DNA of 64,000 nt from Anaerolineales bacterium (lineage in GTDB: Bacteria; Chloroflexota; Anaerolineae; Anaerolineales; Villigracilaceae), in the NCBI GenBank assembly GCA_036385495.1, contig DASVKG010000004.1, positions 12,085 through 76,084 of the forward strand, in the 5' to 3' direction. The notes below the pieces were generated by a model that was given only the letters and a program-made list of their open reading frames with translations, ran no database searches and was not told the DNA's origin. Shown one piece after another: positions 2,656 to 61,980 of the stretch (positions are counted from its first letter, which is position 1; every line of letters starts with the position of its first letter). Made by a program: the position numbers and the translations under genes.

Positions 2656-3708
2656 TTATTTTATGTCAAACTGAACTGGGATAGACAAAGTAACACGCGC
2701 TCCTTTGCCGGGAGAACTATTTAATTCGAACGTCCCGCCAAGCATCTCGGTGCGTTCTTTAATTAATTTCAAACCTAAATTTTCTTCCTTGCCCAGGGCA
2801 TCTGTATCAAAGCCTTTGCCATTATCATCCATAAATAATTTGACAAGAGTGTCACCCATATCCAACTGGATTTTAACCAGGGTTGCCTGGTTCTGATCAA
2901 CAGCATTGCTCAACAATTCCTGCATGGCCCGGAAGACCATCACTTCAACATAAGACTCCATCCGACGTTCGCTGCTGCCAGTGACAGTCACACTCACTTC
3001 CACCCCGGCCTGTTCTTTGAACATATCGGCGTAACGGACAATAGTCGGAGACAAACCTAAATCGTCAAGCATCATGGGGCGGAGTTCAAAAATGAAATTG
3101 CGCACTTTTTGGAATGTGCTCATCGCAGCAACTTTAAGATTGCCGAGTTCGCTGCGCGCTTGGGCGGCATCGATATCGAACAACTTCAATGCAATTTCCG
3201 TTTGAAGGATAAAATTTGAAAGCGCCTGGGCAGGACCATCGTGCATCTGGCGCGATAGACGTTGTCGTTCCGCTTCCTGCACATTTACCAACATTTCAAC
3301 GCTGGATGAGCCGCTCCTGTCACCCTTCCCACCCTTGGCACCTCCAATGCTTACCGCACTCTTCAGGCGTTCCAACATACCAGCATAGCGTTCGAGATGA
3401 GCCTGATCGCCCTGCAGTTTTTCCAACTGTCCACGCATCACGAATAAACGCTGCTGCGTTTCCATGGCAGTATCGTAAACTGTGCGAACCTCTTCGCTGG
3501 AAATTTTGCCAATTTGAACCTGAATCTGCTGCAAATTTGCTGTTACAGCAGTATTACGTTGGGTCAGCTTGCCGACCTCGACGCGGCTCTGTTCCAACAT
3601 CAAGGTAATTTCCTTTAAAGCGCGATTAGTCTCTTCCATCTCCGACTGTATTAAATCATGAGGATCTTCAGTAGATGCAGACGTTTGGGTTAATTCGGGC
3701 AATGACAT
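2656..3708 (-). CDS. Cytoplasmic sensor histidine kinase, HisKA_3 / DegS-LiaS type
   Basis: The N-terminal half is coiled-coil with no TM segment. H-box LSRQMHDGPAQAL. HATPase_c motifs ELLSNAVD, DDNGKGFD and GLKLIKERTEMLGGTF. The SD lies inside the end of the upstream response-regulator gene. Confidence 0.85.
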   Translation of the reverse strand: MSLPELTQTSASTEDPHDLIQSEMEETNRALKEITLMLEQSRVEVGKLTQRNTAVTANLQQIQVQIGKISSEEVRTVYDTAMETQQRLFVMRGQLEKLQGDQAHLERYAGMLERLKSAVSIGGAKGGKGDRSGSSSVEMLVNVQEAERQRLSRQMHDGPAQALSNFILQTEIALKLFDIDAAQARSELGNLKVAAMSTFQKVRNFIFELRPMMLDDLGLSPTIVRYADMFKEQAGVEVSVTVTGSSERRMESYVEVMVFRAMQELLSNAVDQNQATLVKIQLDMGDTLVKLFMDDNGKGFDTDALGKEENLGLKLIKERTEMLGGTFELNSSPGKGARVTLSIPVQFDIK

Positions 3709-14143: not shown

Positions 14144-14182
14144 GGAAAGAGGATTTCCCTCCTGCCATCCATGGAGACACAT

Positions 14183-15523
14183 ATGCCCATCATTCGCGTT
14201 GAAGAAATAGCAAAATATCCCGGCGAAGAAGTTACTGTGCAGGGCTGGGTCTACAGCCGCACTGACAAAGGGAAGCTGGTTTTCCTGCTCGTCCGGGATG
14301 GCTCAGGTTTTGTCCAGTGTGTAGCTTTCAAAGGTGACCTTCCCGAGGCAATCTTCGACCAGCTAACCCGCCTGCCGCAGGAATCCTCGGTCATTATCAG
14401 CGGACCAGTACGCGAAGACAAGCGCGCTCCCGGCATCCCCGGAGGGTACGAGATCGGCGTTAAGGAAATACAAATCATCCAGATGGCTGCCGAGGATTAT
14501 CCAATGGCGTTGAAAGAGCACGGGGTGGACTTCGCCCTAGACAACCGCCACTTGTGGATCCGCATGCCCAGCCAGTGGGCCATCCTGCGCATTCGCGGGA
14601 CGGTCATTTCGGCTATCCGTGAGTGGTTCGAACAGAACGGGTTTATCAATATGGACACGCCCATCCTGACTCCGGCAGCTGTAGAAGGCACCACTACTCT
14701 TTTCGAGACGGAATATTTCGACGAAGGTAAAGCCTACCTTAGCCAATCGGGCCAGCTTTATAACGAGGCGAATATCATGGCCTTTGGAAAGGTTTACTGC
14801 TTTGGCCCGACCTTTCGCGCCGAAAAATCCAAAACTCGCCGTCACCTGACCGAGTTTTGGATGGTCGAACCAGAGATCGCCTTCTGCGATCTGGATGGTT
14901 TAATGGAGGTGGAGGAGCAGTTCGTGACGCATATTGTCAAACGCGTCCTACGAGATCGGGGGCCTGAGTTGAAATCTCTGGGCCGTGACCTGACGAAGCT
15001 GGAAAAAATAGAGGTTCCCTTCCCGCGCATCTCCTACGACGAGGCTACCAAAGCCATCCAGGAGCTTTATGAAAAGGAAACTGACCCGGAAAAAAAAGAG
15101 ATGCTAAAATTCGAATGGGGCATGGACTTCGGGGCACCCCACGAGGCAGTCCTGACCAGCCGTTACGAGAAACCTGTCTTTGTCTACGGTTACCCTACTC
15201 AGGTGAAGGCTTTCTACATGGAACCTTGGCCAGGGCGTCCCGAGGTTTGCAAGTCAGTGGACTTGCTTGCACCGGAAGGATACGGAGAAATCATAGGTGG
15301 TTCGGAGCGCATGTCCAGTCCCGACTTGCTGCTGGAGCGCATCCACGAACACGGATTGCCGGAAGCAGCCTACAAATGGTACCTGGACCTGCGGCGTTAT
15401 GGCTCGGTCCCTCACTCCGGCTTTGGGATGGGCGTAGAGAGGACGGTAGCCTGGATCTGCGGAATCGAGCATATCCGTGAAACCATTGCCTTCCCGCGCA
15501 TGATCAAGAGAGTCTATCCGTAA
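14183..15523 (+). CDS. asnS: Asparagine--tRNA ligase
   Basis: AsnRS signature [21 protein letters not shown] and GGSERM...SGFGMGVER. Start set to ATG 14183 (GGAGA 6 nt upstream) rather than 14171. Confidence 0.9.
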
Positions 15524-15734
15524 TATTGTCGGGGATCTGCGGTATTTAAACCACTCTCTGAACTAATCCACCCATTATTTCATCCCAAAGGTGTTTCCAT
15601 AAGAACCTTAATCTTTCCCTACACACCCCTCTTACTTTATGGTATAAAACATCTACCCTGCTGTGCTCGCGATGTTGCACCTCCGTTCTGAGCCAACACC
15701 CACAAAAAGGGGTCCAATCTCGCGACAAGGATGC

Positions 15735-16229
15735 GATAGGCTTCGGCCAAGGCTGACTTGCCGGGTAGAACCCCGACCTGCGAAAGCAGGTTCAGAACCT
15801 TGCAGCACACGGCATTAGCGGGGTTATCTTATACAACCGAATACGGAGAACCAGCGACTGGCTCCCGGGAGAACCGGGAGTACGAGGTGGAGGTTCCTCT
15901 GCGCAAGCGGAGGTTAAGACCCTTACTCCAGCCCCTTTCCTATATAGAGGATAAGGGTTGAGGTTGAAGGTCGAAAATCGGATAGATCAGCGGATGCCTC
16001 CGGAGCCTGACCACGGGTTCCCTTCTCCCTTCCAGAAAAAGCGCACAGCAACGAACAGGTTTAAAAAAACTGTGTTTGTTGTCCAGTCCCAAAACTGACC
16101 GGTGACGGTCAGGACAAAGGATAGCCGCAGTGGTCCAGGCAGAAAACCAGCCTGCGTAAACATGGAAGGGCTGCCAGCCGGAAATTTTGTGGTACCAGAG
16201 GCATGCCCCTCAGGCATGCCTTTTTATTT
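15735..16229 (+). ncRNA. Large structured RNA with glmS-ribozyme-like core motifs (candidate; the 5' boundary is uncertain)
   Basis: No credible ORF. Hairpins capped by tetraloops that read as such only on the + strand: UUCG 15739-15748, GAAA 15776-15791, GAGAA 15862-15880, GCAA 15896-15913, GUGA 16095-16112. More hairpins at 15933-15957 and 16049-16081. Motifs AGCGAC, ACGAGG-U-GGAGGUU, GUCGAAAAUCGG, GCGGAUGCCUCCGG and GGACAAAGG occur in the order I remember for the glmS ribozyme. The element ends at an intrinsic terminator. Confidence 0.5.
16199..16229 (+). terminator. Intrinsic terminator closing the structured RNA
   Basis: AGGCATGCC / GGCATGCCT 9-bp stem with a CCTCA loop, followed by TTTTATTT. 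Confidence 0.75.
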
Positions 16230-16468
16230 ATGGAGTACCCAATGAGTAATGAAAAGAATTGGTTCAAATGGCATAAAGGATTGGCACGCTCCTCATGCGA
16301 AAACGGCGTCCAGCCATGGCCGGCGCGCCCGGTTTTTAGCTTGATCCGACCTGTACCAAGACCTGTCCCAAAGTCCGGTGCTTTCCGGCATATTCCATTT
16401 GTCAATAACCAGGAATCAACCATTCAGAAATAATTAATCCAAACCCCATAATCATTTAGAGAGGAAAT

Positions 16469-17806
16469 ATGGAACCCAAAGAATTAATTGCTCGTGTTAA
16501 ATCGGATAATGTCAAATTTATTTCCTACCAGTTCACCGACGTAACTGGCGCAGTTAAAAGTGTGGACGCCCCCATTAAGCAATTGGAGTCCACATTGGAA
16601 GATGGCGTCTGGTTTGACGGTTCATCGGTGGAAGGCTTCGCCCGGATACAAGAAAGCGACATGCGCCTGGTAATTGATCCGGATACCTATGCTGTCCTCC
16701 CCTGGAGTCCAGTCGAGGCGCGCCGGGCGCGCGTCTTCTGCGATATTTTTACCCCCGATGGACAACCCTTTGATGGTGACCCGCGAGGGGCACTCAAACG
16801 CATTCTTTCCAAAATAACGGAAAGGGGCTGGACCTATAACGTGGGGCCCGAACCTGAATTTTTCCTTTTCCGCCGCAACGGTGGAGAGGCCATCCACCCC
16901 GTGCCGCACGATGTAGGTAGTTACTTCGACTTCTCCGCTGACGATGAGGCTGTGCGGGTCCGCACTGAATTAATGGATGCGCTTAACAGTATGGGATTGG
17001 ATGTGGAAGTGGGGCATCACGAAGTGGCCATCGGTCAACATGAAATTGACTTCCGGTTCGCTGATGCTTTACGGACAGCCGACAACGTGTTGACCCTAAA
17101 ATACACTGTCAAAGCAATCGCCGCCAAACACGACCTGATCGCATCGTTCATGCCCAAACCCGTTTTCGGGATCAATGGTTCCGGCATGCACTGTCACCAA
17201 TCCATTTTTGACAAAAAGGGTAATAACCTGTTCTATGATGCCAAAGATGAATATCACCTTTCCCCCATGGCTTACGGGTTCATAGCCGGTCAATTAAAAC
17301 ATGCCCGCGCCCTGGCAGCAATCGTCGCACCAACTGTAAATTCGTACAAACGTCTGGTCCCGGGGTACGAAGCTCCGGTTTACATCGGCTGGGCGCAGAT
17401 AAACCGCTCTGCGCTGATCCGGATCCCCCGTTTCACCGAAGGCCGCATCAAAGCGATGCGAGCCGAACTGCGCTTCCCCGACCCGTCTGCCAATCCATAC
17501 CTGGCTTTCGCCGCTATCCTGGCTGCAGCGATGGATGGGGTTGACAATAAACTAACACCCCCCGCCCCGCTTAACAATATTAACGTATATCACCTAGATG
17601 AGGCAGAACGCGCCAAACTAGGTATTGCCTCCCTGCCCGGTTCCCTAGCCGAAGCCCTGGATGAATTAGAAAAAGACAAAGTAGTTCGCTCGGCATTGGG
17701 CGAGAACATTTACGATGCTTTCACTCGTGCCAAGCGGGATGAGTGGGATGCCTTCCGAATTAATGTGACTGACTGGGAAGTGAAACAATATCTTGAAACA
17801 GCATAG
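16469..17806 (+). CDS. glnA: Glutamine synthetase, type I
   Basis: 445 aa. Beta-grasp N-domain (FTDVTGAVKSV, DGSSVEGF) and catalytic-domain motifs (FMPKPVFGINGSGMHCHQS, NSYKRLVPGYEAP, NRSALIRIP). SD GAGAGGAAA upstream. Confidence 0.92.
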   Translation: MEPKELIARVKSDNVKFISYQFTDVTGAVKSVDAPIKQLESTLEDGVWFDGSSVEGFARIQESDMRLVIDPDTYAVLPWSPVEARRARVFCDIFTPDGQPFDGDPRGALKRILSKITERGWTYNVGPEPEFFLFRRNGGEAIHPVPHDVGSYFDFSADDEAVRVRTELMDALNSMGLDVEVGHHEVAIGQHEIDFRFADALRTADNVLTLKYTVKAIAAKHDLIASFMPKPVFGINGSGMHCHQSIFDKKGNNLFYDAKDEYHLSPMAYGFIAGQLKHARALAAIVAPTVNSYKRLVPGYEAPVYIGWAQINRSALIRIPRFTEGRIKAMRAELRFPDPSANPYLAFAAILAAAMDGVDNKLTPPAPLNNINVYHLDEAERAKLGIASLPGSLAEALDELEKDKVVRSALGENIYDAFTRAKRDEWDAFRINVTDWEVKQYLETA

Positions 17807-18036: not shown

Positions 18037-18756
18037 CTAGACATGAAACGGATTAAAATTAGTGTCCCGGTCGTAATAGTCTTCATTTTCAGACTTCTTC
18101 AACCTACTGACTGCCGCATAGGTAACCGGTGTCATTAGCGCTTCGACGCCAACCTTAAAGAGATAATTGGTTAATACTAGGGTCAAAAACAAGCTCCAGG
18201 GGAAAACATGGAACATAGAAGCTATTATGATGAATACGAACGTGTCCACCAGTTCGCCGGCAATCGTACTCCCTATGGTCCGAGTCCACAACCAACGACC
18301 GCGGGTCAAAATTTTCATTTTGGCCAGCACAAACGAGTTGGTAAACTCTCCAGACCAATATCCTGCCAGGCTGGCCAGGACTATACCCCCGCTTGACATG
18401 CCGCCCAGAATGGCCAGGTAGGCTGCATTGCCCGCATATTGCTGCCACTGGGATTCGCCCGGCAGGATGCTGACGATCCAGAATATCACCGCGCTAAGAG
18501 CCAGACAGGCAAACCCTGCCCAAATTACCCGACGGGAGTTTTTATAGCCATATACTTCGGTAAGAATATCTCCAAAGATATAACTGACCGGAAAGAGGAG
18601 GGTTCCAGCATCAAAGGCCATACGAACGCCGAAGATGCTGAAGCCCCAGTCGACAATTTTGGCTGAAGAGGCGATATTGCTGACCACCAGTATTGTCACA
18701 AAGACAGCCATGATCAAGTCAAGATAACGATAACGCCTTTCCATAATTATCGGCAT
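18037..18756 (-). CDS. yhhQ: Queuosine-precursor transporter (YhhQ/DUF165, VUT family)
   Basis: Six or more TM helices and the family motif LLFPVSYIFGDILTEVYGY. Start ATG 18756 overlaps the ttuA stop by 1 nt (TGATG); ATG 18744 is an alternative. Confidence 0.75.
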   Translation of the reverse strand: MPIIMERRYRYLDLIMAVFVTILVVSNIASSAKIVDWGFSIFGVRMAFDAGTLLFPVSYIFGDILTEVYGYKNSRRVIWAGFACLALSAVIFWIVSILPGESQWQQYAGNAAYLAILGGMSSGGIVLASLAGYWSGEFTNSFVLAKMKILTRGRWLWTRTIGSTIAGELVDTFVFIIIASMFHVFPWSLFLTLVLTNYLFKVGVEALMTPVTYAAVSRLKKSENEDYYDRDTNFNPFHV

Positions 18757-19670
18757 CAGCGGTTCAACATCCTGCAAAACGAACACAGTCCCGGCGCGGA
18801 GGTTGGCTGTCCACAGTTGGGACATGGGTGCAGTTCGGCCTGTATAGTCTCACGTTCGGCGAACAAACCGGATTTGCGAGCTTCCAGGAAGGATAAGTAA
18901 AACGACTGTTTTGCACCGGGGCGGTCGCTCTCCAATTTATTAAATAATTGCTTGTAATAAATCGATGTCGAGCCGACAGAAAATGGGCATTCGTCGTAAA
19001 TATACTCAATGCCGCGTAAGAGTGCATAGGCCAGCATCTCGCGCTCATAGATGCGGAAGAGCGGCTTGACTTTTTTTGCCAGGCCCGGGACTTCCGGAAG
19101 CACCGGTCCCTGGCGGAGCAAATATTCTCCCGACCAGGAAAGGGTATTTCCGAAAAGAACTGCGACCTCGTCATCCAGGTTATGCCCAGTCGATAGAACC
19201 TCATACCCAAAGTCACGAGTGATGCGGTTCATTACATGACGTTTGACCAGGCCGCAAATTGAGCACGGCTTGACCCGACCACGATGGGATTTAAGTGTAA
19301 ATTGTGGTATGGTCGCACCATATTCCTTATGAATATCGACGATATGAAGTTTCAAGCCGCGCCCAGCAGCAAATTTCTCGGTCAGGCGCTGGGACTCGAT
19401 AGAATAGCTGAGCCCTTCATCAATGCCAAGACAAATGTACAAACCATCAGCTTGATAACCCAGGCGCTGAAGGATGTCCCAGAGCGATAGCGAGTCCTTG
19501 CCACCGGAGACAGCGACGAGAACCTTTTCTTGGTGCGTGAACATCTTGTACTTCTCGATGAATCGCTCGATTTGTTCCGGAATCCAAGCAAGGTAGTGTT
19601 CTTTACAGAGCGCCAGTTTATGCTGGCGCATGTTGACCACGGCTTTTTGACCGCAAGCCCGGCACTTCAT
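18756..19670 (-). CDS. ttuA: tRNA 2-thiolation PP-loop ATPase, TtuA/NcsA family
   Basis: N-terminal zinc finger C3-x2-C6...C22-x2-H25, PP-loop SGGKDS, cluster cysteines PCSICG and DECP, and a C-terminal zinc finger CPNCG...CSFC. Confidence 0.8.
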   Translation of the reverse strand: MKCRACGQKAVVNMRQHKLALCKEHYLAWIPEQIERFIEKYKMFTHQEKVLVAVSGGKDSLSLWDILQRLGYQADGLYICLGIDEGLSYSIESQRLTEKFAAGRGLKLHIVDIHKEYGATIPQFTLKSHRGRVKPCSICGLVKRHVMNRITRDFGYEVLSTGHNLDDEVAVLFGNTLSWSGEYLLRQGPVLPEVPGLAKKVKPLFRIYEREMLAYALLRGIEYIYDECPFSVGSTSIYYKQLFNKLESDRPGAKQSFYLSFLEARKSGLFAERETIQAELHPCPNCGQPTSAPGLCSFCRMLNR

Positions 19671-26552: not shown

Positions 26553-28442
26553 ATGCACGTCATCGGTACTGCCGGGCACGTGGACCACGGAAAATCCACC
26601 CTCATCGCCGCGCTAACCGGCATTCACCCCGATCGTCTTAAAGAAGAACAAGAACGGGAAATGACCATAGACCTCGGTTTTGCCTGGTTGACTTTACCAG
26701 ATGGCGAGGAAATTGGTATCGTGGACGTACCTGGTCACCGTGATTTCATTGAGAACATGCTTGCAGGTGTGGGTGGCATAGACGCGACCCTTCTGGTTAT
26801 CGCCGCTGACGAGGGAATCATGCCCCAGACGCGTGAGCACCTTGCCATCCTCGACCTGCTTCAAATTCAGGCAGGCATAATTGTGCTTTCCAAGATAGAC
26901 CTTGTGGATGACCCCGAATGGCTGGATTTGATGGAGGTGGATATACGCAATGCCTTGCGCGGTACCGTGTTGCATAACGCTCCCATCCAGCGGGTTTCCT
27001 CGGTCACCCATGCCGGTTTTCCGGAGCTTCTACAAGCGCTTGGTCTACTCCTGGAAAAAACGCCAACCCGCCCCAACTACGGCCGACCGCGGTTGCCTGT
27101 GGATCGGGTCTTCTCCATCGCCGGGTTCGGAACGGTCGTCACCGGCACACTATCGGACGGGAACCTTACCACAGGAGAAGAAGTGGAAATCCTGCCATCC
27201 GGTTATCGAGGCCGAATACGCGGCCTCCAGACGCATAAAAAGAAAGAGGACATAGCGGTCCCCGGGAGCCGCACTGCAGTAAACATTACTGGCCTGGATG
27301 TGCAACAAATCCAACGTGGCGAGCTGGTGACACATCCCGGTCAGTACAAGTCTTCCCAGCGCCTCGACCTCAGCTTTCGCCTGCTCCCAGACGTGTCCGC
27401 TCCATTGCGTCATCACACCGAAGTCAAACTTTATATCGGAACATCAGAGACCCTTGGAGACGTGCGCCTATTGGGCGCAGAAATCCTTTCCCCCGGCGAA
27501 ACCGGCTGGCTGCAACTTGACCTGCGCATGCCTGTTGTGGCTGCGCGTGGCGACCGGTTCATTCTGCGACGCCCGTCCCCCAGCGAAACCCTCGGCGGCG
27601 GCACGGTAGTGGACCCACAACCAACTCGACGGCATAAACGGTTCGACAAGAATATACTTCAGGGGCTTGTGACCATGGCACAAGGGTCGCCCGCTGAAAT
27701 TATATTGCAAGCGAGTCTCGCACTAGGTCCGGCTCCGGTCAAGGATGTAACTGCCCATTCCCGACTGGAAGTCCGCGCAGCCGAATCAGCGATTAACGCC
27801 CTCCTTGATACCAATCAGCTAGTCAAGTTGGACGATGGACCTTGGACGAGCGACAGCGTGGTGCTTGCTAGTTCGCAGTGGACCGAACTCAAGAATATTA
27901 TTGTAGAGGCTTTAGGTACTTATCATGGTGTCTATCCACTGCGAAAGGGCATGCCTCGCGAGGAGCTGAAGAGCCGGTTGAAACTGGCACCCCGCCCCTT
28001 CAACCTGATCCTAACAAAATTGGCCTCGGAGGGAGTCCTGAGGGAGGGTCCTAAATGGGCATCCCTCCCGGAACACACGGTCCGATTTTCCCCATTCCAG
28101 CAAGTGAAAGTTGATAAGTTATTGGAGCTGTTTTCAGCAGCACCAAACACCCCGCCTTCGGTGAAAGAGTGCCAGGCTGAAGTCGGTGAAGACGTATTCA
28201 GCACCCTCCGAGAGTCGGGCGATCTAGTCGCCGTCTCTGAGGAGATAGTCCTCCAGAAACGGGTTTATGAGGACATGGTGGAGAAAATCCGCCAAGCACT
28301 CATTCAAAATAAACAGGTTACCCTCGCTGAAGCACGTGATCTGCTCAATACCACCCGGAAATACGTGCAAGCACTTATGGAGCATCTGGACGCGATTGGC
28401 ATGACTGTGCGAGATGGAGACTACCGGCGCCTAAGATCTTAG
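26553..28442 (+). CDS. selB: Selenocysteine-specific translation elongation factor
   Basis: GTPase motifs GHVDHGKST, DVPGH and SKID. EF-Tu-like domains II and III, then a long C-terminal winged-helix extension. Length of 629 aa is typical of bacterial SelB. Confidence 0.85.
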   Translation: MHVIGTAGHVDHGKSTLIAALTGIHPDRLKEEQEREMTIDLGFAWLTLPDGEEIGIVDVPGHRDFIENMLAGVGGIDATLLVIAADEGIMPQTREHLAILDLLQIQAGIIVLSKIDLVDDPEWLDLMEVDIRNALRGTVLHNAPIQRVSSVTHAGFPELLQALGLLLEKTPTRPNYGRPRLPVDRVFSIAGFGTVVTGTLSDGNLTTGEEVEILPSGYRGRIRGLQTHKKKEDIAVPGSRTAVNITGLDVQQIQRGELVTHPGQYKSSQRLDLSFRLLPDVSAPLRHHTEVKLYIGTSETLGDVRLLGAEILSPGETGWLQLDLRMPVVAARGDRFILRRPSPSETLGGGTVVDPQPTRRHKRFDKNILQGLVTMAQGSPAEIILQASLALGPAPVKDVTAHSRLEVRAAESAINALLDTNQLVKLDDGPWTSDSVVLASSQWTELKNIIVEALGTYHGVYPLRKGMPREELKSRLKLAPRPFNLILTKLASEGVLREGPKWASLPEHTVRFSPFQQVKVDKLLELFSAAPNTPPSVKECQAEVGEDVFSTLRESGDLVAVSEEIVLQKRVYEDMVEKIRQALIQNKQVTLAEARDLLNTTRKYVQALMEHLDAIGMTVRDGDYRRLRS

Positions 28443-30437: not shown

Positions 30438-30511
30438 GGGCGCGTAGCTCAGCCGGTTAGAGCGCATCACTCACATTGATGAGGTCGGGGGTTCGAGCCC
30501 CTCCGCGCCCA
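30438..30511 (+). tRNA. tRNA-Val (anticodon CAC)
   Basis: Cloverleaf folded by hand: acceptor GGGCGCG/CGCGCCC, D stem GCTC/GAGC, anticodon stem CATCA/TGATG with loop CTCACAT, T loop TTCGAGC. CCA is not encoded. Confidence 0.9.
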
Positions 30512-54588: not shown

Positions 54589-56232
54589 ATGAGTAAAGAA
54601 CAAAAATTACGAATCATTCCCATTGGTGGCCTGGGCGAAGTGGGCAAAAACATGATGGCCTACGAGTACGGCGGTCGTATCCTGGTGGTGGACGCCGGGC
54701 TGATGTTCCCAGACAACGATATGCTGGGGGTGGATTACATTATCCCGGACTTCCAGTATTTGCGTGACAATGCAACCCGTGTGGACGGGATTTTCATTAC
54801 CCACGGACACGAAGACCATATAGGTGCCATCCAACACTTGCTGGCAGTTGTGCCCGCTCCGGTTTATGCCACTCCACTTACCCGGGGACTGATCGATGTC
54901 AAACTGGCTCGAAATGGTCTTTCGGGGAAGTCCGATCTGAGGACAGTGCAGGCCGGTGAAACAGTTCAGATTGGTCAGTTCCAGGTGGAAACCTTCCATG
55001 TTTGCCACTCCATCCCGGATGCCATTGGCCTGGGCATCACCACCCCCGTCGGATTAATTGTCCACACCGGCGACTACAAGTTTGATCAGACACCGGTGGA
55101 TAACTGGCCGACAGATTTTGCCAAACTGGCTGAGTTTTCAGCGCGTGGAGTGGCTGTCTTGCTTGGCGACTCGACCAATGCCGAACGCCCGGGCTGGACA
55201 CCCTCCGAGCGAGTGATCGGCCCAGCTTTTGACGAGGTTTTTCGGATTGCCCCGGGTCGTATTATCATCGCGACCTTTGCATCCCTCATTGCCCGGATGC
55301 AGCAAGTGGCCAACGCTGCGGTACGACATAACCGCAAAATGGCTTTTGTGGGGACGAGCATGGTGGATAACGCCAAGATCGCTCAAAAGATGGGTTACCT
55401 TGAAATACCAGAAAAATCTCTAGTCAGCCTGGACGAAGCTTTGCACTTGCCAGATAAAGAGGTGGTATTGATGTGTACCGGTTCCCAAGGGGAACCGTCG
55501 TCCATCATCGGACGGCTCGCCACCGGCACCAACCGCCAATTCGACGTTCAAAGCGGCGATACAATCGTGCTCTCATCACATCCCATTCCCGGAAACGAAG
55601 AAGCCATCAGCAAAACAATCAACCGTCTCATGCGGCGGGGGGCAGAGGTGGTCCATGAGGCCATCTCGCCGGTACATGTATCAGGTCACGCCAGTTCGGA
55701 GGAAATGAAACTCCTGCTCAATCTGGTACGACCCACTTTCTTTATACCCATCCATGGCGAACTCCACCAGTTAAGACGGCATGCCAACCTGGCAAAACAA
55801 GTCGGCATCCCGACGGAGAATATCGCTGTTGTTGAGAATGGGCAGGTGGTAGAACTAGCCGATGGCAAACTCTCGTTAGCCGAACGCATGCCGGGGGGAT
55901 ATATTTTCGTCGAAGGCGATAGCGTAGGCGAAATTGACCTGGACGTGATGCGCGAGCGTGAGCAACTGGCACGTTCCGGTATTGTCCTTATAACTGCAAC
56001 ACTTGACAAATATTCCAACCGCTTATTAAAAGACCCAGAGGTCATCACGCGAGGTTTCATCTCCCCTGAAGATGCTGAGACACTCGTCCCAGCTGTCCAA
56101 AAAAAGGTTACCGACCTGGTTAATAGCGGCGGCTCGGATGACGAAAAAACAATCACCAACGCTGTGAGAAGTCTGCTTCGCAACCAGACCGGCCGCAGGC
56201 CAATGATCTTTGTGGCGGTGACGAAAGCTTAA
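54589..56232 (+). CDS. rnj: Ribonuclease J
   Basis: Metallo-beta-lactamase/beta-CASP nuclease: IIPIGGLGEVGKNM, THGHEDHIGA and HVSGHAS, plus the C-terminal domain. Confidence 0.92.
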   Translation: MSKEQKLRIIPIGGLGEVGKNMMAYEYGGRILVVDAGLMFPDNDMLGVDYIIPDFQYLRDNATRVDGIFITHGHEDHIGAIQHLLAVVPAPVYATPLTRGLIDVKLARNGLSGKSDLRTVQAGETVQIGQFQVETFHVCHSIPDAIGLGITTPVGLIVHTGDYKFDQTPVDNWPTDFAKLAEFSARGVAVLLGDSTNAERPGWTPSERVIGPAFDEVFRIAPGRIIIATFASLIARMQQVANAAVRHNRKMAFVGTSMVDNAKIAQKMGYLEIPEKSLVSLDEALHLPDKEVVLMCTGSQGEPSSIIGRLATGTNRQFDVQSGDTIVLSSHPIPGNEEAISKTINRLMRRGAEVVHEAISPVHVSGHASSEEMKLLLNLVRPTFFIPIHGELHQLRRHANLAKQVGIPTENIAVVENGQVVELADGKLSLAERMPGGYIFVEGDSVGEIDLDVMREREQLARSGIVLITATLDKYSNRLLKDPEVITRGFISPEDAETLVPAVQKKVTDLVNSGGSDDEKTITNAVRSLLRNQTGRRPMIFVAVTKA

Positions 56233-56313: not shown

Positions 56314-59296
<2,983 letters not shown>

Positions 59297-59306
59297 GATC
59301 ACCTCT

Positions 59307-60187: not shown

Positions 60188-61699
60188 TCAATCCTGGGTC
60201 AGTTGATAATTCGGTGCTTCTTTTGTGATGATGACGTCGTGAGGATGGCTTTCAATTAAGCCTGCATTGGTTATGCGCACCAAGCGTGTTTTTGTACGTA
60301 AATCATCCAAAGACTGCGCGCCTGCATATCCCATCCCAGAGCGCAGCCCGCCGACCAACTGGTAAACAAAATCGTGCAATTGACCCTTGAAGGGCACGCG
60401 CCCTTCGATTCCCTCGGGGACAAGTTTTCCACCACCTGCTTTGAGCGATGGAGAAAGACTAGTCTGAGCGCTGGCATAGCGATCCCTTCCATATCCTTGC
60501 AAGGCGCCCAAACTGCCCATCCCACGGTATTCTTTGAACCGCCGTCCTTCAAGCAAAACCACATCACCCGGTGACTCATCCAAACCCGCCAGCAGGCTAC
60601 CAAGCATTACCGTGTCAGCCCCGGCAACGATAGCCTTGATAATATCACCGCTGAACTTGATGCCTCCATCCGCAATTATGGGAATGTTGAATGGTCGGGC
60701 TGCCTGTGAACAAGCATAGATGGCAGACAATTGAGGCATCCCTGCACCAGCAACGACACGTGTCGTGCAAATGGATCCGGCACCGACCCCCACTTTGACA
60801 GCGGCTGCTCCAGCCTCGATCAGCGCCTGTGTGCCTTCAGAAGTAACAATGTTTCCGGCGATGACGGGAAGTATTGACCACTTCTGATGAACCCGGCGGA
60901 TGGCATTCAACACCCCCTTTGAGTGACCGTGAGCAGTGTCTATGACGATCACATCCACACCTGCATCCACAAGATTTCCAACCCGCGTTTCTAGGTCAGC
61001 GCCAACTCCGACAGCCGCCCCTACCAGAAGTCTGCCTCGCTCGTCATGGGCTGCATTGGGATAGTCGCGCTCCTTCTGAATGTCCTTGACTGTCAATAGC
61101 CCTTTTAAATGACCAGCGGCATCCACCAATGGGAGCTTCTCGATGCGATGCTTTTGGAGAATTGCTTTGGCATCCTGGCGTGAAATTCCAACCGGTGCTG
61201 TCACAAGTGGCTGAGGCGTCATAAACTTACTGATGGGTTGGCCAAAATCAGAGGGTTCGACGAAACGGATATCGCGGTTGGTCAAGATACCCACCAATTT
61301 CTTCTCCTGATCCACAATGGGAACACCGCTGATCTTGTAATTAGACATGATGTCTTCCGCCTGCTGCAGTGTCGCGTTCGGGGGAAGAGTAATTGGATCA
61401 GAAATCATACCTGATTGCGAGCGTTTGACCATGTCGACTTCATTGGCCTGTTGTTCCACCGACAGGTTTCGATGGATAATCCCGATGCCGCCTTCGCGCG
61501 CCAATGCAATTGCCAGACGCGCCTCGCTGACAGTATCCATGGCTGCTGAGAGCAGGGGGATATTTAAACGGATATCTGCGGTCAAGCGCGCGGTCACATC
61601 TGCCTCATTGGGCAGGACCTCACTATAAGACGGAACCACCAGAACGTCGTCGAAAGTAAGGGCTTCAGAGGACTGGAAAAGATCCTGATTATTGTCCAT
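60188..61699 (-). CDS. guaB: IMP dehydrogenase
   Basis: TFDDVLVVP, a CBS pair, the catalytic loop [11 protein letters not shown], and GGIKFSGD. Start ATG 61699 with AGGAGA 5 nt upstream. Confidence 0.95.
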
Positions 61700-61980
61700 A
61701 TTTCTCCTGTGGGACATCGGAAATGTCCAGACGATTTTACATCAAAAGGGAATGATGTGGGGGCCTTTTTCTACTGCTCGCATTAATACGTGGGCTTTTA
61801 ACAATCAAAATACCTGGATTTCCAGTAATTTCGGTCCACATTTTTGCACATTAGCCTATAAATGGCTTTTGGGAACTTACTTGATAGAAGGAAAGATATG
61901 GGGAGGTTGATGGCAGAAATTGAGGGAAGAAAATGTTGACCCGCGCCTCCCTTCGTGTTAGACTCAATCCTTGACTTTCT

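Follow-up and report, generated by a model that had tools for sequence, protein, structure and literature searches.

The glmS ribozyme is, to our knowledge, the sole natural ribozyme that uses a metabolite as catalytic cofactor, and the sole bacterial self-cleaving ribozyme whose biology is considered understood. Variants from Deinococcus-Thermus with added stems in the catalytic core and an altered periphery were reportedly described by McCown, Roth and Breaker in 2011, and all but two of 463 representatives are said to sit in glmS mRNAs. The understanding of the ribozyme's biology rests on its exclusive location in glmS leaders (PMC6765202). Here, the gap between asnS and glnA in a 64,000-nucleotide (nt) stretch of DNA from an Anaerolineales bacterium of the Chloroflexota (contig DASVKG010000004.1, assembly GCA_036385495.1; the whole stretch is hereafter called the window) is found to contain what are very probably two RNA genes on one transcript, an ordinary 6S RNA followed by a divergent glmS-class ribozyme. 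The nearest AsnS matches among species-representative genomes are Anaerolineales and other Chloroflexota metagenome-assembled genomes at 73-82% identity.

Three further systems bear comparison. In E. coli ssrS-ygfA, 6S RNA is the 5' part of a longer transcript from which host RNases cut it out; in the window it likewise lies in a longer precursor, but here a predicted self-cleaving ribozyme stands exactly at its 3' boundary. Stand-alone small RNA (sRNA) genes with their own promoter and terminator are also found in the GlmY/GlmZ-RapZ system of enterobacteria, in which, according to PMC4152352, the abundance of GlmY/GlmZ reports glucosamine-6-phosphate (GlcN6P), the protein RapZ senses this metabolite and the sRNAs base-pair on glmS mRNA, whereas here the RNA itself would do the sensing. 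The glutamine riboswitch/glnA RNA (RF01739) is likewise a structured RNA upstream of nitrogen-assimilation genes, but it has no sequence or structure similarity to the present element and gave no match at E ≤ 10 in 15524-16468.

RNA genes between asnS and glnA

A single-sequence nhmmer search retrieved the 3' module of the gap in one other locus alone (L003); further copies came from a two-sequence profile and then from GlnA-anchored contigs (five more copies), and a metagenome pattern scan with the invariant family block GAAAATCGGATNNATCAGCGGNTG gave at least 120 loci. The family used here comprises at least 102 Anaerolineae sequences that are mutually less than 95% identical, drawn from the metagenome matches listed and the earlier copies, and all counts out of 102 refer to this set. 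Covariation was assessed in 52 diverse sequences (alignment A2) against a structure that includes the pseudoknots. The window matches the family profile (a hidden Markov model) at E = 1e-70, as a single copy. Compact homologs reach or exceed the RF00234 gathering score of 37 over model positions 1-167 of 167 (L153 at 41.5, L106 at 37.9, L198 at 37.6 and L104 at 37.2 bits), the L003 copy reaches 24.0 bits over positions 11-167, and other members score 21.7-35.1 bits. The alignment of the model to the homologs is colinear, and A15853|G15854 of the window falls at the model-assigned cleavage position, so that the glmS-like motifs picked out in the initial annotation of this DNA are genuine. Judged from these alignments, the resemblance to glmS is real homology, and the family represents a known ribozyme class in a new structural form and in an unprecedented context; no description of it was found in the literature on glmS ribozymes with Chloroflexi, Anaerolinea or 6S RNA. 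The Rfam glmS model overlooks many of its members.

Folding of 15829-16229 gives -158.7 kcal/mol on the + strand against -126.9 +/- 6.2 for shuffled sequences (z = -5.18), with z = -2.85 on the - strand. Across the 52 homologs the helices covary: 92.5% of the cells of the whole structure are paired compared with 41-49% for slid partners, and none of 500 shuffles reaches any observed measure. The blocks AGCG, ACGAGG, AUCGG and CAGCGG.UGCC are invariant, and all active-site nucleotides tied to catalysis or cofactor are kept, namely A-1, G1, C2-G56, the G of ACGAGG, U43-C44-G45 and G57 (roles and nomenclature from PMC7125110 and PMC11602151). As read from the alignments, the full glmS architecture is kept, with P1, the P2/P2.1/P2.2 double pseudoknot, P3/P3.1, and P4/P4.1 with its GNRA loop and the P1 receptor. 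Every hairpin, motif and terminator listed in the initial annotation is present where it was placed: the hairpin at 15862-15880 is P1, that at 15896-15913 is the inserted P2a, that at 15933-15957 is part of a variable insert, that at 16049-16081 is an insert of P4 and that at 16095-16112 is P4.1 (Table 1).

Individual helices contribute unequally to this picture. The third pair of P1 (columns 48:77) is C:G in 52/52 and its G lies 4 nt before ACGAGG, which matches the spacing of G33, the L4-tetraloop receptor of the B. subtilis glmS ribozyme (PMC11602151), while P4.1 always ends in a GNRA loop (GUGA, GCGA, GUAA or GCAA). P2 (GGAGG/CCUCC) is 100% paired, with one of its five pairs changed on both sides (GC to AU in seven sequences; the first pair is GU, GC or AU), and P2.1 (ACGAGG/AUCG) is complementary but invariant and therefore uninformative for covariation. 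All pairs of P2.2 are possible in every sequence, position 8 pairing with U as G-U in 31 and as A-U in 21, and in the P3.1 pseudoknot three of six pairs changed on both sides (one is UA in 31, CG in 11 and UG in 9 sequences, another AU in 17, GC in 8 and GU in 8). The columns of P2b are 53% paired, a figure that cannot be evaluated because this variable-length hairpin is misaligned. The strand at 15973-16001 is the longest invariant block of the family and is colinear with UCGA..UCGGCGGAUGCCUCC of the Rfam consensus, and in the 3' extension both CUUCC:GGAAG and the 7-bp CCCUUCC:GGAAGGG are 99% paired.

The canonical ribozyme (RF00234; Bacillus subtilis, B. anthracis, Thermoanaerobacter tengcongensis) shares with the family the A|GCG site, P1 with the invariant receptor G-C, ACGAGG with the catalytic G, P2 (GGAGG/CCUCC), P2.1 (CGA/UCG), P2.2 to the nucleotides 3' of the cleavage site, the G57 equivalent, P3 with P3.1, P4/P4.1 with a GNRA loop, the AAAAC and ACAAAG flanks and an RNase J gene in the genome. 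Unlike it, the Anaerolineae family lies outside the 5' untranslated region of glmS, with no glmS nearby, and carries P2a and P2b (40-80 nt) between P2 and P2.1; P2a is absent from the canonical model, against which the alignment of homologs shows an insertion of 45-60 nt instead of 4-12. The window lineage has, in addition, the extra hairpin in P4, and the insertions relative to the canonical fold are located where the initial annotation had put them. P2.2 is GCG-N-CUGR / YCAGCG rather than GCGCC-N-G / CGGCG, so that the bulged nucleotide, which is variable, stands at position 4 and not 6. In mutational data C4A is partially rescued by A6C, from which a shifted-bulge register with C4 bulged and position 6 paired was inferred (PMC7125110), and the P2.2 of the family is this type of rearrangement. 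The stems between P2 and P2.1 and the shifted P2.2 bulge, of a kind that mutational scanning suggested the ribozyme could accept, are natural test cases for what the core tolerates. The family further differs in a 3' extension of about 120 nt with the closing helix CCCUUCC:GGAAGGG, two hairpins and a dedicated intrinsic terminator, and in a conserved 25-nt 5' leader preceded by its own promoter or fused behind 6S RNA. Unlike the Deinococcus-Thermus variants, which reportedly remain part of glmS mRNAs, the family never adjoins glmS in the loci compared.

The GGAGA of the leader (15845-15849) can pair with UCUCC at 16024-16028 (97% paired, few covariations). A partner sought for ACAAYUGAAUA (15829-15844 in the window, and in all members) gave only weak 4-bp options, which do not discriminate because the RNA is rich in purine and pyrimidine tracts. 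Separately, eleven loci (L095, L124, L136, L147, L179, L180, L181, L185, L188, L190 and L203) have inserts of 60-150 nt within P1, which share the recurring sequence …GAUGUCAC.GCGAGCG…GAGAUUGCUUCG…CUCGCAAUGACAU… and suggest a further conserved sub-domain grafted on P1.

The initial annotation had treated the whole region as one large RNA. Its 5' third is instead an ordinary 6S RNA, and its 3' two-thirds are homologous to glmS ribozymes. The 6S RNA explains the first two tetraloop hairpins (15739-15748 and 15776-15791), which sit within it, as well as the extra 5' region of about 120 nt, which is indeed structured but belongs to an RNA beginning at 15652, upstream of the 15735 at which the region had been taken to begin. 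Many relatives carry 6S RNA downstream of asnS, and these homologs score 55.6-73.1 bits against RF00013. In L004, L007, L008, L010 and L011 the 6S gene is followed directly by its own terminator, without a ribozyme, whereas in the window and L003 6S and the terminator are separated by 330-400 nt of conserved sequence. We infer the promoter of the joint transcript by reading the sequence, since a strict consensus promoter scan did not pick it up; the same CTTTATGGTATAAAAC also precedes the 6S gene in L081.

Only 24 nt separate the end of 6S RNA from the predicted cleavage site. In the window this spacer contains neither a terminator nor a promoter, and the 26 fused copies of the family have a degenerate U-tract behind 6S (GGGGUUAUCUUAU in the window). 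This arrangement shows that the predicted ribozyme of the window can only arise as a 3' extension of 6S RNA, and that co-transcription is obligatory.

Table 1. Features of the asnS-glnA gap and associated genes, in window positions
Feature	Position	Strand	Basis and detail
asnS	14171-15523		flanking gene, as initially annotated
Putative promoter of 6S-ribozyme transcript	15620-15648	+	-35 TACACA 15620-15625, 17-nt spacer, extended -10 TGgTATAAA 15640-15648; read from sequence
6S RNA (SsrS)	15652-15828	+	Rfam RF00013, 60.5 bits (gathering score 46.4), model 1-187 of 187
Conserved leader from 6S to ribozyme, UUAUACAACCGAAUACGGAGAACCA	15829-15853	+	A15853 is nucleotide -1; consensus ACAAYUGAAUA..GGAGA...A in all copies, after 6S or promoter
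Divergent ribozyme, very probably glmS-class	15853-16170	+	tail to terminator end 16229; family profile, RF00234 alignments of homologs
Predicted self-cleavage site A|G	15853-15854	+	aligned to A|GCG site of Rfam glmS model; AGCG invariant 52/52
P2.2 5' strand, C2 G3 [A4 bulged] C5 U6 G7 G8	15855-15861	+	pairs with U C A G C G 15987-15992
P1 hairpin CUCCCGG-GAGAA-CCGGGAG	15862-15880	+	6/7 pairs changed on both sides; 98% cells paired
Catalytic core strand ACGAGG-U-GGAGG-UU	15882-15895	+	P2.1 5' strand CGA 15883-15885, P2 5' strand GGAGG 15889-15893; ACGAGG invariant 52/52
P2a, inserted core hairpin CUCUGC-GCAA-GCGGAG	15897-15912	+	6/6 pairs changed on both sides; 99% cells paired
P2b, second inserted hairpin region, variable length	15918-15972	+	about 15-80 nt, in all copies; hairpin predicted by RNAalifold
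Core strand GAAAAUCGGAUAGAUCAGCGGAUGCCUCC	15973-16001	+	P2.1 3' strand UCG 15978-15980, P2.2 3' strand UCAGCG 15987-15992, G57 equivalent 15993, P2 3' strand CCUCC 15997-16001
P3 hairpin GGAGCCU / GGGUUCC	16002-16021	+	loop GACCAC 16009-16014; 7/7 pairs changed on both sides; 94% cells paired
Pyrimidine tract CUUCUCCCUUCC	16022-16033	+	nearly invariant; pairs with leader GGAGA and with GGAAGGG 16164-16170
P4 domain	16041-16128	+	P4 strands 16041-16045 and 16124-16128; P4 5/5 pairs covary
P4 lineage-specific insert hairpin	16049-16081	+	
P4.1, GUGA tetraloop	16095-16112	+	flanks CAAAAC and GGACAAAGG; 7/7 pairs covary
P3.1 pseudoknot 3' strand GUGGUC	16130-16135	+	pairs with P3 loop GACCAC, perfect 6 bp in window
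3' extension	16136-16170	+	hairpin CAGGC..GCCUG 16136-16154, then GGAAGGG 16164-16170 closing helix with 16027-16033; RNAalifold consensus, pair scan
Intrinsic terminator of 6S-ribozyme transcript	16197-16229	+	scan: stem 16197-16223, 11 bp with 6 GC pairs, then U-tract UUUUUAUUU
Small open reading frame behind terminator	16232-16433	+	Shine-Dalgarno GGAG 16232-16235, ATG 16242
glnA, type I glutamine synthetase, next gene	16469-17806	+	flanking gene, as initially annotated; homologs carry PF03951 and PF00120
RNase J	54589-56232	+	Pfam RNase_J_b_CASP 157 bits, RNase_J_C 68 bits

Genomic setting of the ribozyme family

Across the 102 copies the ribozyme spans 229-513 nt (median 294). A TTGAC-N17-TAnAAT promoter ends 29-81 nt (median 36) before the cleavage site in 64 copies, while 26 copies, including that of the window, lack this motif and begin 24-44 nt downstream of 6S RNA; the two arrangements are never combined in one copy, as none of the 26 fused copies has the motif seen in the 64 others. 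The 6S gene lies 45-200 nt upstream in 24 further copies, and in 10 copies an opposite-strand flavin amine oxidase gene is found between 6S and the ribozyme. The next gene on the same strand is an Ada/AraC-MGMT regulator in 47 copies, glnA in 29, glutamate synthase in 11 (PF01645 at 373 bits), EamA in 6 and unknown in 9. A tblastn search found no GlmS homolog in the window or in 211 related loci, in agreement with the absence of glmS noted initially. A gene of about 2 kb that many loci have between the module and glnA had at first been suspected to be glmS, and was assigned by Pfam to an Ada/AraC-MGMT regulator and an EamA transporter. A family of at least 102 members that is free of glmS linkage, has its own promoter and terminator, and lies by 6S RNA or before glnA or glutamate synthase gives the fold a second life.

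A terminator is present in 88 of the 102 loci, and in 87 its T-run begins 42-64 nt (median 52.5) past GGAAGGG; both its stem and a hairpin before it covary across the family. An antiterminator, formed by the core GGAUGCC with the terminator arm GGCAUGCC, was considered and rejected, as the stem covaries as a plain hairpin and two copies with the core GGGUGCC show no matching change in the arm. A Shine-Dalgarno sequence and start codon lie within about 40 nt of the terminator in 21/25 glnA-adjacent loci versus 8/44 Ada-adjacent loci (Fisher p = 1e-7). The glnA gene itself begins less than 130 nt downstream of the ribozyme in 11 loci, where its Shine-Dalgarno sequence is found 15-30 nt past the T-run. 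These start positions, the glutamate synthase genes behind 11 other copies and the ribozyme-free L081 locus speak for transcription beyond the terminator and for a role in cis.

Proposed function and rival explanations

The best overall explanation, and on balance a narrowly probable one, is a composite 6S-ribozyme locus with self-cleavage and with read-through to glnA. A promoter near 15620-15648 would give one primary transcript consisting of 6S RNA, the 25-nt leader, the ribozyme and a 3' tail to the terminator. Self-cleavage is predicted between A15853 and G15854, with GlcN6P as the likely cofactor, because the full glmS architecture and all core nucleotides are kept. Cleavage would release a 6S RNA bearing a 25-nt tail and would leave the ribozyme body with a 5'-hydroxyl, open to entry of RNase J and decay. 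In Bacillus, RNase J degrades the 5'-hydroxyl cleavage product of glmS ribozymes (PMC10810187), and the initial annotation was right that the window encodes this enzyme. Transcripts that read through the terminator would enter the small open reading frame (ORF), whose Shine-Dalgarno sequence begins 3 nt past the U-tract, and then glnA; cleavage would therefore destabilise the read-through small-ORF/glnA message as well, and the net effect would be negative feedback of the amino-sugar pool on glutamine synthesis.

A regulatory role of the ribozyme directed at glnA is plausible, though short of probable. The initial annotation had offered recruitment of a GlcN6P-responsive ribozyme to the glutamine/amide-nitrogen block as one of three explanations, and this is the most attractive reading, supported by the copies in which glnA or glutamate synthase begins directly behind the terminator; it cannot be the whole story, because 47/102 copies precede an unrelated Ada-like gene. 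The broader proposal that a lineage of the glmS class was uncoupled from glmS and redeployed as a sensor before nitrogen assimilation is more tentative still. GlcN6P, or a related amine if the pocket drifted, would then gate the stability of read-through glnA/glutamate-synthase messages and, in the window lineage, the freeing of 6S RNA from the shared precursor as well. If true, this would be the first natural case of a glmS-class ribozyme controlling anything but glmS, and it would link the amino-sugar pool both with the synthesis of glutamine and with a global regulator of transcription. The question is thereby raised of GlcN6P feedback on nitrogen assimilation and on 6S maturation in Chloroflexota.

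Several observations weigh against the composite, glnA-directed explanation. An Rfam search returned 6S RNA above threshold but no glmS match, either over the whole window at the gathering threshold or over the 945-nt gap (15524-16468) at E ≤ 10, and on short stretches the window copy gave fragments only (16087-16121 at 18.4 bits, 15853-15969 at 9.3 bits), below the RF00234 gathering score that the compact homologs reach; the copy is kept sub-threshold by about 75 inserted nt in the core and about 33 in P4. Canonical glmS ribozymes possess nothing equivalent to the conserved 5' leader. Given a terminator that is strong and both conserved and covarying, most transcripts probably end short of glnA, and the 240-nt spacer before glnA contains a weak promoter match (16423-16452) and could hold a separate glnA promoter. 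Finally, the 47 copies that precede the Ada/AraC-MGMT gene have conserved the ribozyme together with a promoter and terminator of its own, so some function of the family must be independent of glnA.

This last point leads to the main rival, which is somewhat unlikely: a trans-acting or self-limiting small RNA, autonomous or the source of one (for example the released leader), whose link with 6S and glnA is inherited gene order. Its abundance would be set by GlcN6P-triggered self-cleavage and RNase J decay, and its targets would be distant, for example an unlinked glmS mRNA, as with GlmY/GlmZ; GlcN6P circuits that act in trans are documented (PMC4152352). The promoter of its own in 64 copies, the terminator at a fixed distance with a covarying stem and preceding hairpin, the 3' extension and 5' leader that canonical ribozymes do not need, and the conservation before the Ada-like regulator, where a start codon near the terminator is rare, are all in its favour. 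Yet it leaves unexplained both the start of glnA or the small ORF right behind the terminator (the 21 of 25 loci above) and the loss of the promoter in the 26 fused copies, and glmS with its leader, a possible target, lies outside the window and the 211 loci compared.

The fused copies invite a narrower proposal, namely that the ribozyme of the window lineage simply generates the 6S 3' end by processing, in place of the relatives' 6S terminator, with no metabolite-dependent regulation. The five relatives in which a terminator directly follows 6S without a ribozyme, and the 26 copies in which the U-tract has degenerated and the ribozyme follows within 24-44 nt, are consistent with it, but most members are unfused to 6S and have their own promoter, so that 6S processing cannot be the conserved function of the family. 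Moreover, ordinary RNases mature 6S RNA elsewhere, as at E. coli ssrS-ygfA, and a cofactor-dependent ribozyme of 320 nt is an extravagant cutter. This proposal is accordingly considered improbable.

An RNA of another kind, be it an unrelated class that resembles glmS by chance, as had also been suggested initially, or a glmS-derived fold with another ligand or lost catalysis, is highly improbable. The extra core stems, the shifted P2.2 bulge, the new 3' domain and leader, and a context of nitrogen assimilation rather than amino-sugar synthesis would fit such an RNA, but chance resemblance is excluded by the colinear full-length matches of compact members at or above the Rfam glmS threshold and by the retention of every active-site and cofactor-pocket nucleotide tied to function in the literature; sequence alone would still allow a ligand switch of the fold. 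The third of the initial explanations, a decaying relic of a glmS leader left after glmS moved away, takes its support from the absence of glmS nearby and the sub-threshold Rfam score of the window copy, and is effectively refuted by the covariation and the size of the family, which has 102 non-redundant copies under purifying selection; their core blocks are invariant, their helices all show compensatory changes, they have conserved promoters and terminators of their own, and none lies beside glmS.

Small ORF, glnA and neighbouring genes

The initial annotation had found no credible ORF in the gap, which holds for 15735-16229 but not for the gap as a whole, as a conserved small ORF starts at 16242. 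In the window it has lost its stop, runs to 16433 and encodes 63 amino acids, compared with 31 in relatives, in which the peptide ends in …WPIGLPRSSCGRGIQPWPARP(V/A)-stop. The ORF is also seen in L135, L171, L194, L101, L123, L211, L087 and L088, and from locus to locus it varies mostly at third codon positions, a pattern suggestive of translation. The peptide has no Pfam or NCBIfam match; its W/P-rich end before the stop resembles ribosome-arrest leader peptides such as TnaC and SecM. A previously undescribed conserved leader peptide is thereby marked upstream of glnA. Between the small ORF and glnA, two hairpin-like CCGG-YGCGC-N-CCGG motifs (16318-16334 and about 16375-16392) are conserved and might belong to an attenuator of glnA. 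The first shares sequence with the end of the 31-amino-acid ORF; in the window alone a U-run follows it, and there the scan reads it as terminator-like.

The gene order aspS-asnS-6S-…-glnA-Vut_1 is kept in relatives. In the close relative L081/L082 (GlnA 91% identical) 6S RNA is present, without the ribozyme and without the small ORF; there (3258-3503) the Shine-Dalgarno sequence and ATG of glnA lie within about 60 nt of the U-rich end of 6S and, as no promoter is recognisable in this spacer, glnA may be read through from the 6S promoter.

Elsewhere in the window, Pfam identifies a Vut_1 transporter (18037-18825, -), CTP synthase (57674-59302, -) and IMP dehydrogenase (60188-61717, -), as well as the selenocysteine elongation factor SelB (26553-28442, +; SelB wing domains). 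A tRNA gene is found at 30438-30511 (+; Rfam, 68.5 bits), and its anticodon loop, read as CUCACAU, would make it tRNA-Val(CAC). In L210, the ribozyme locus has a tRNA-Sec gene (1149-1241; Rfam, 77.2 bits) about 500 nt away.

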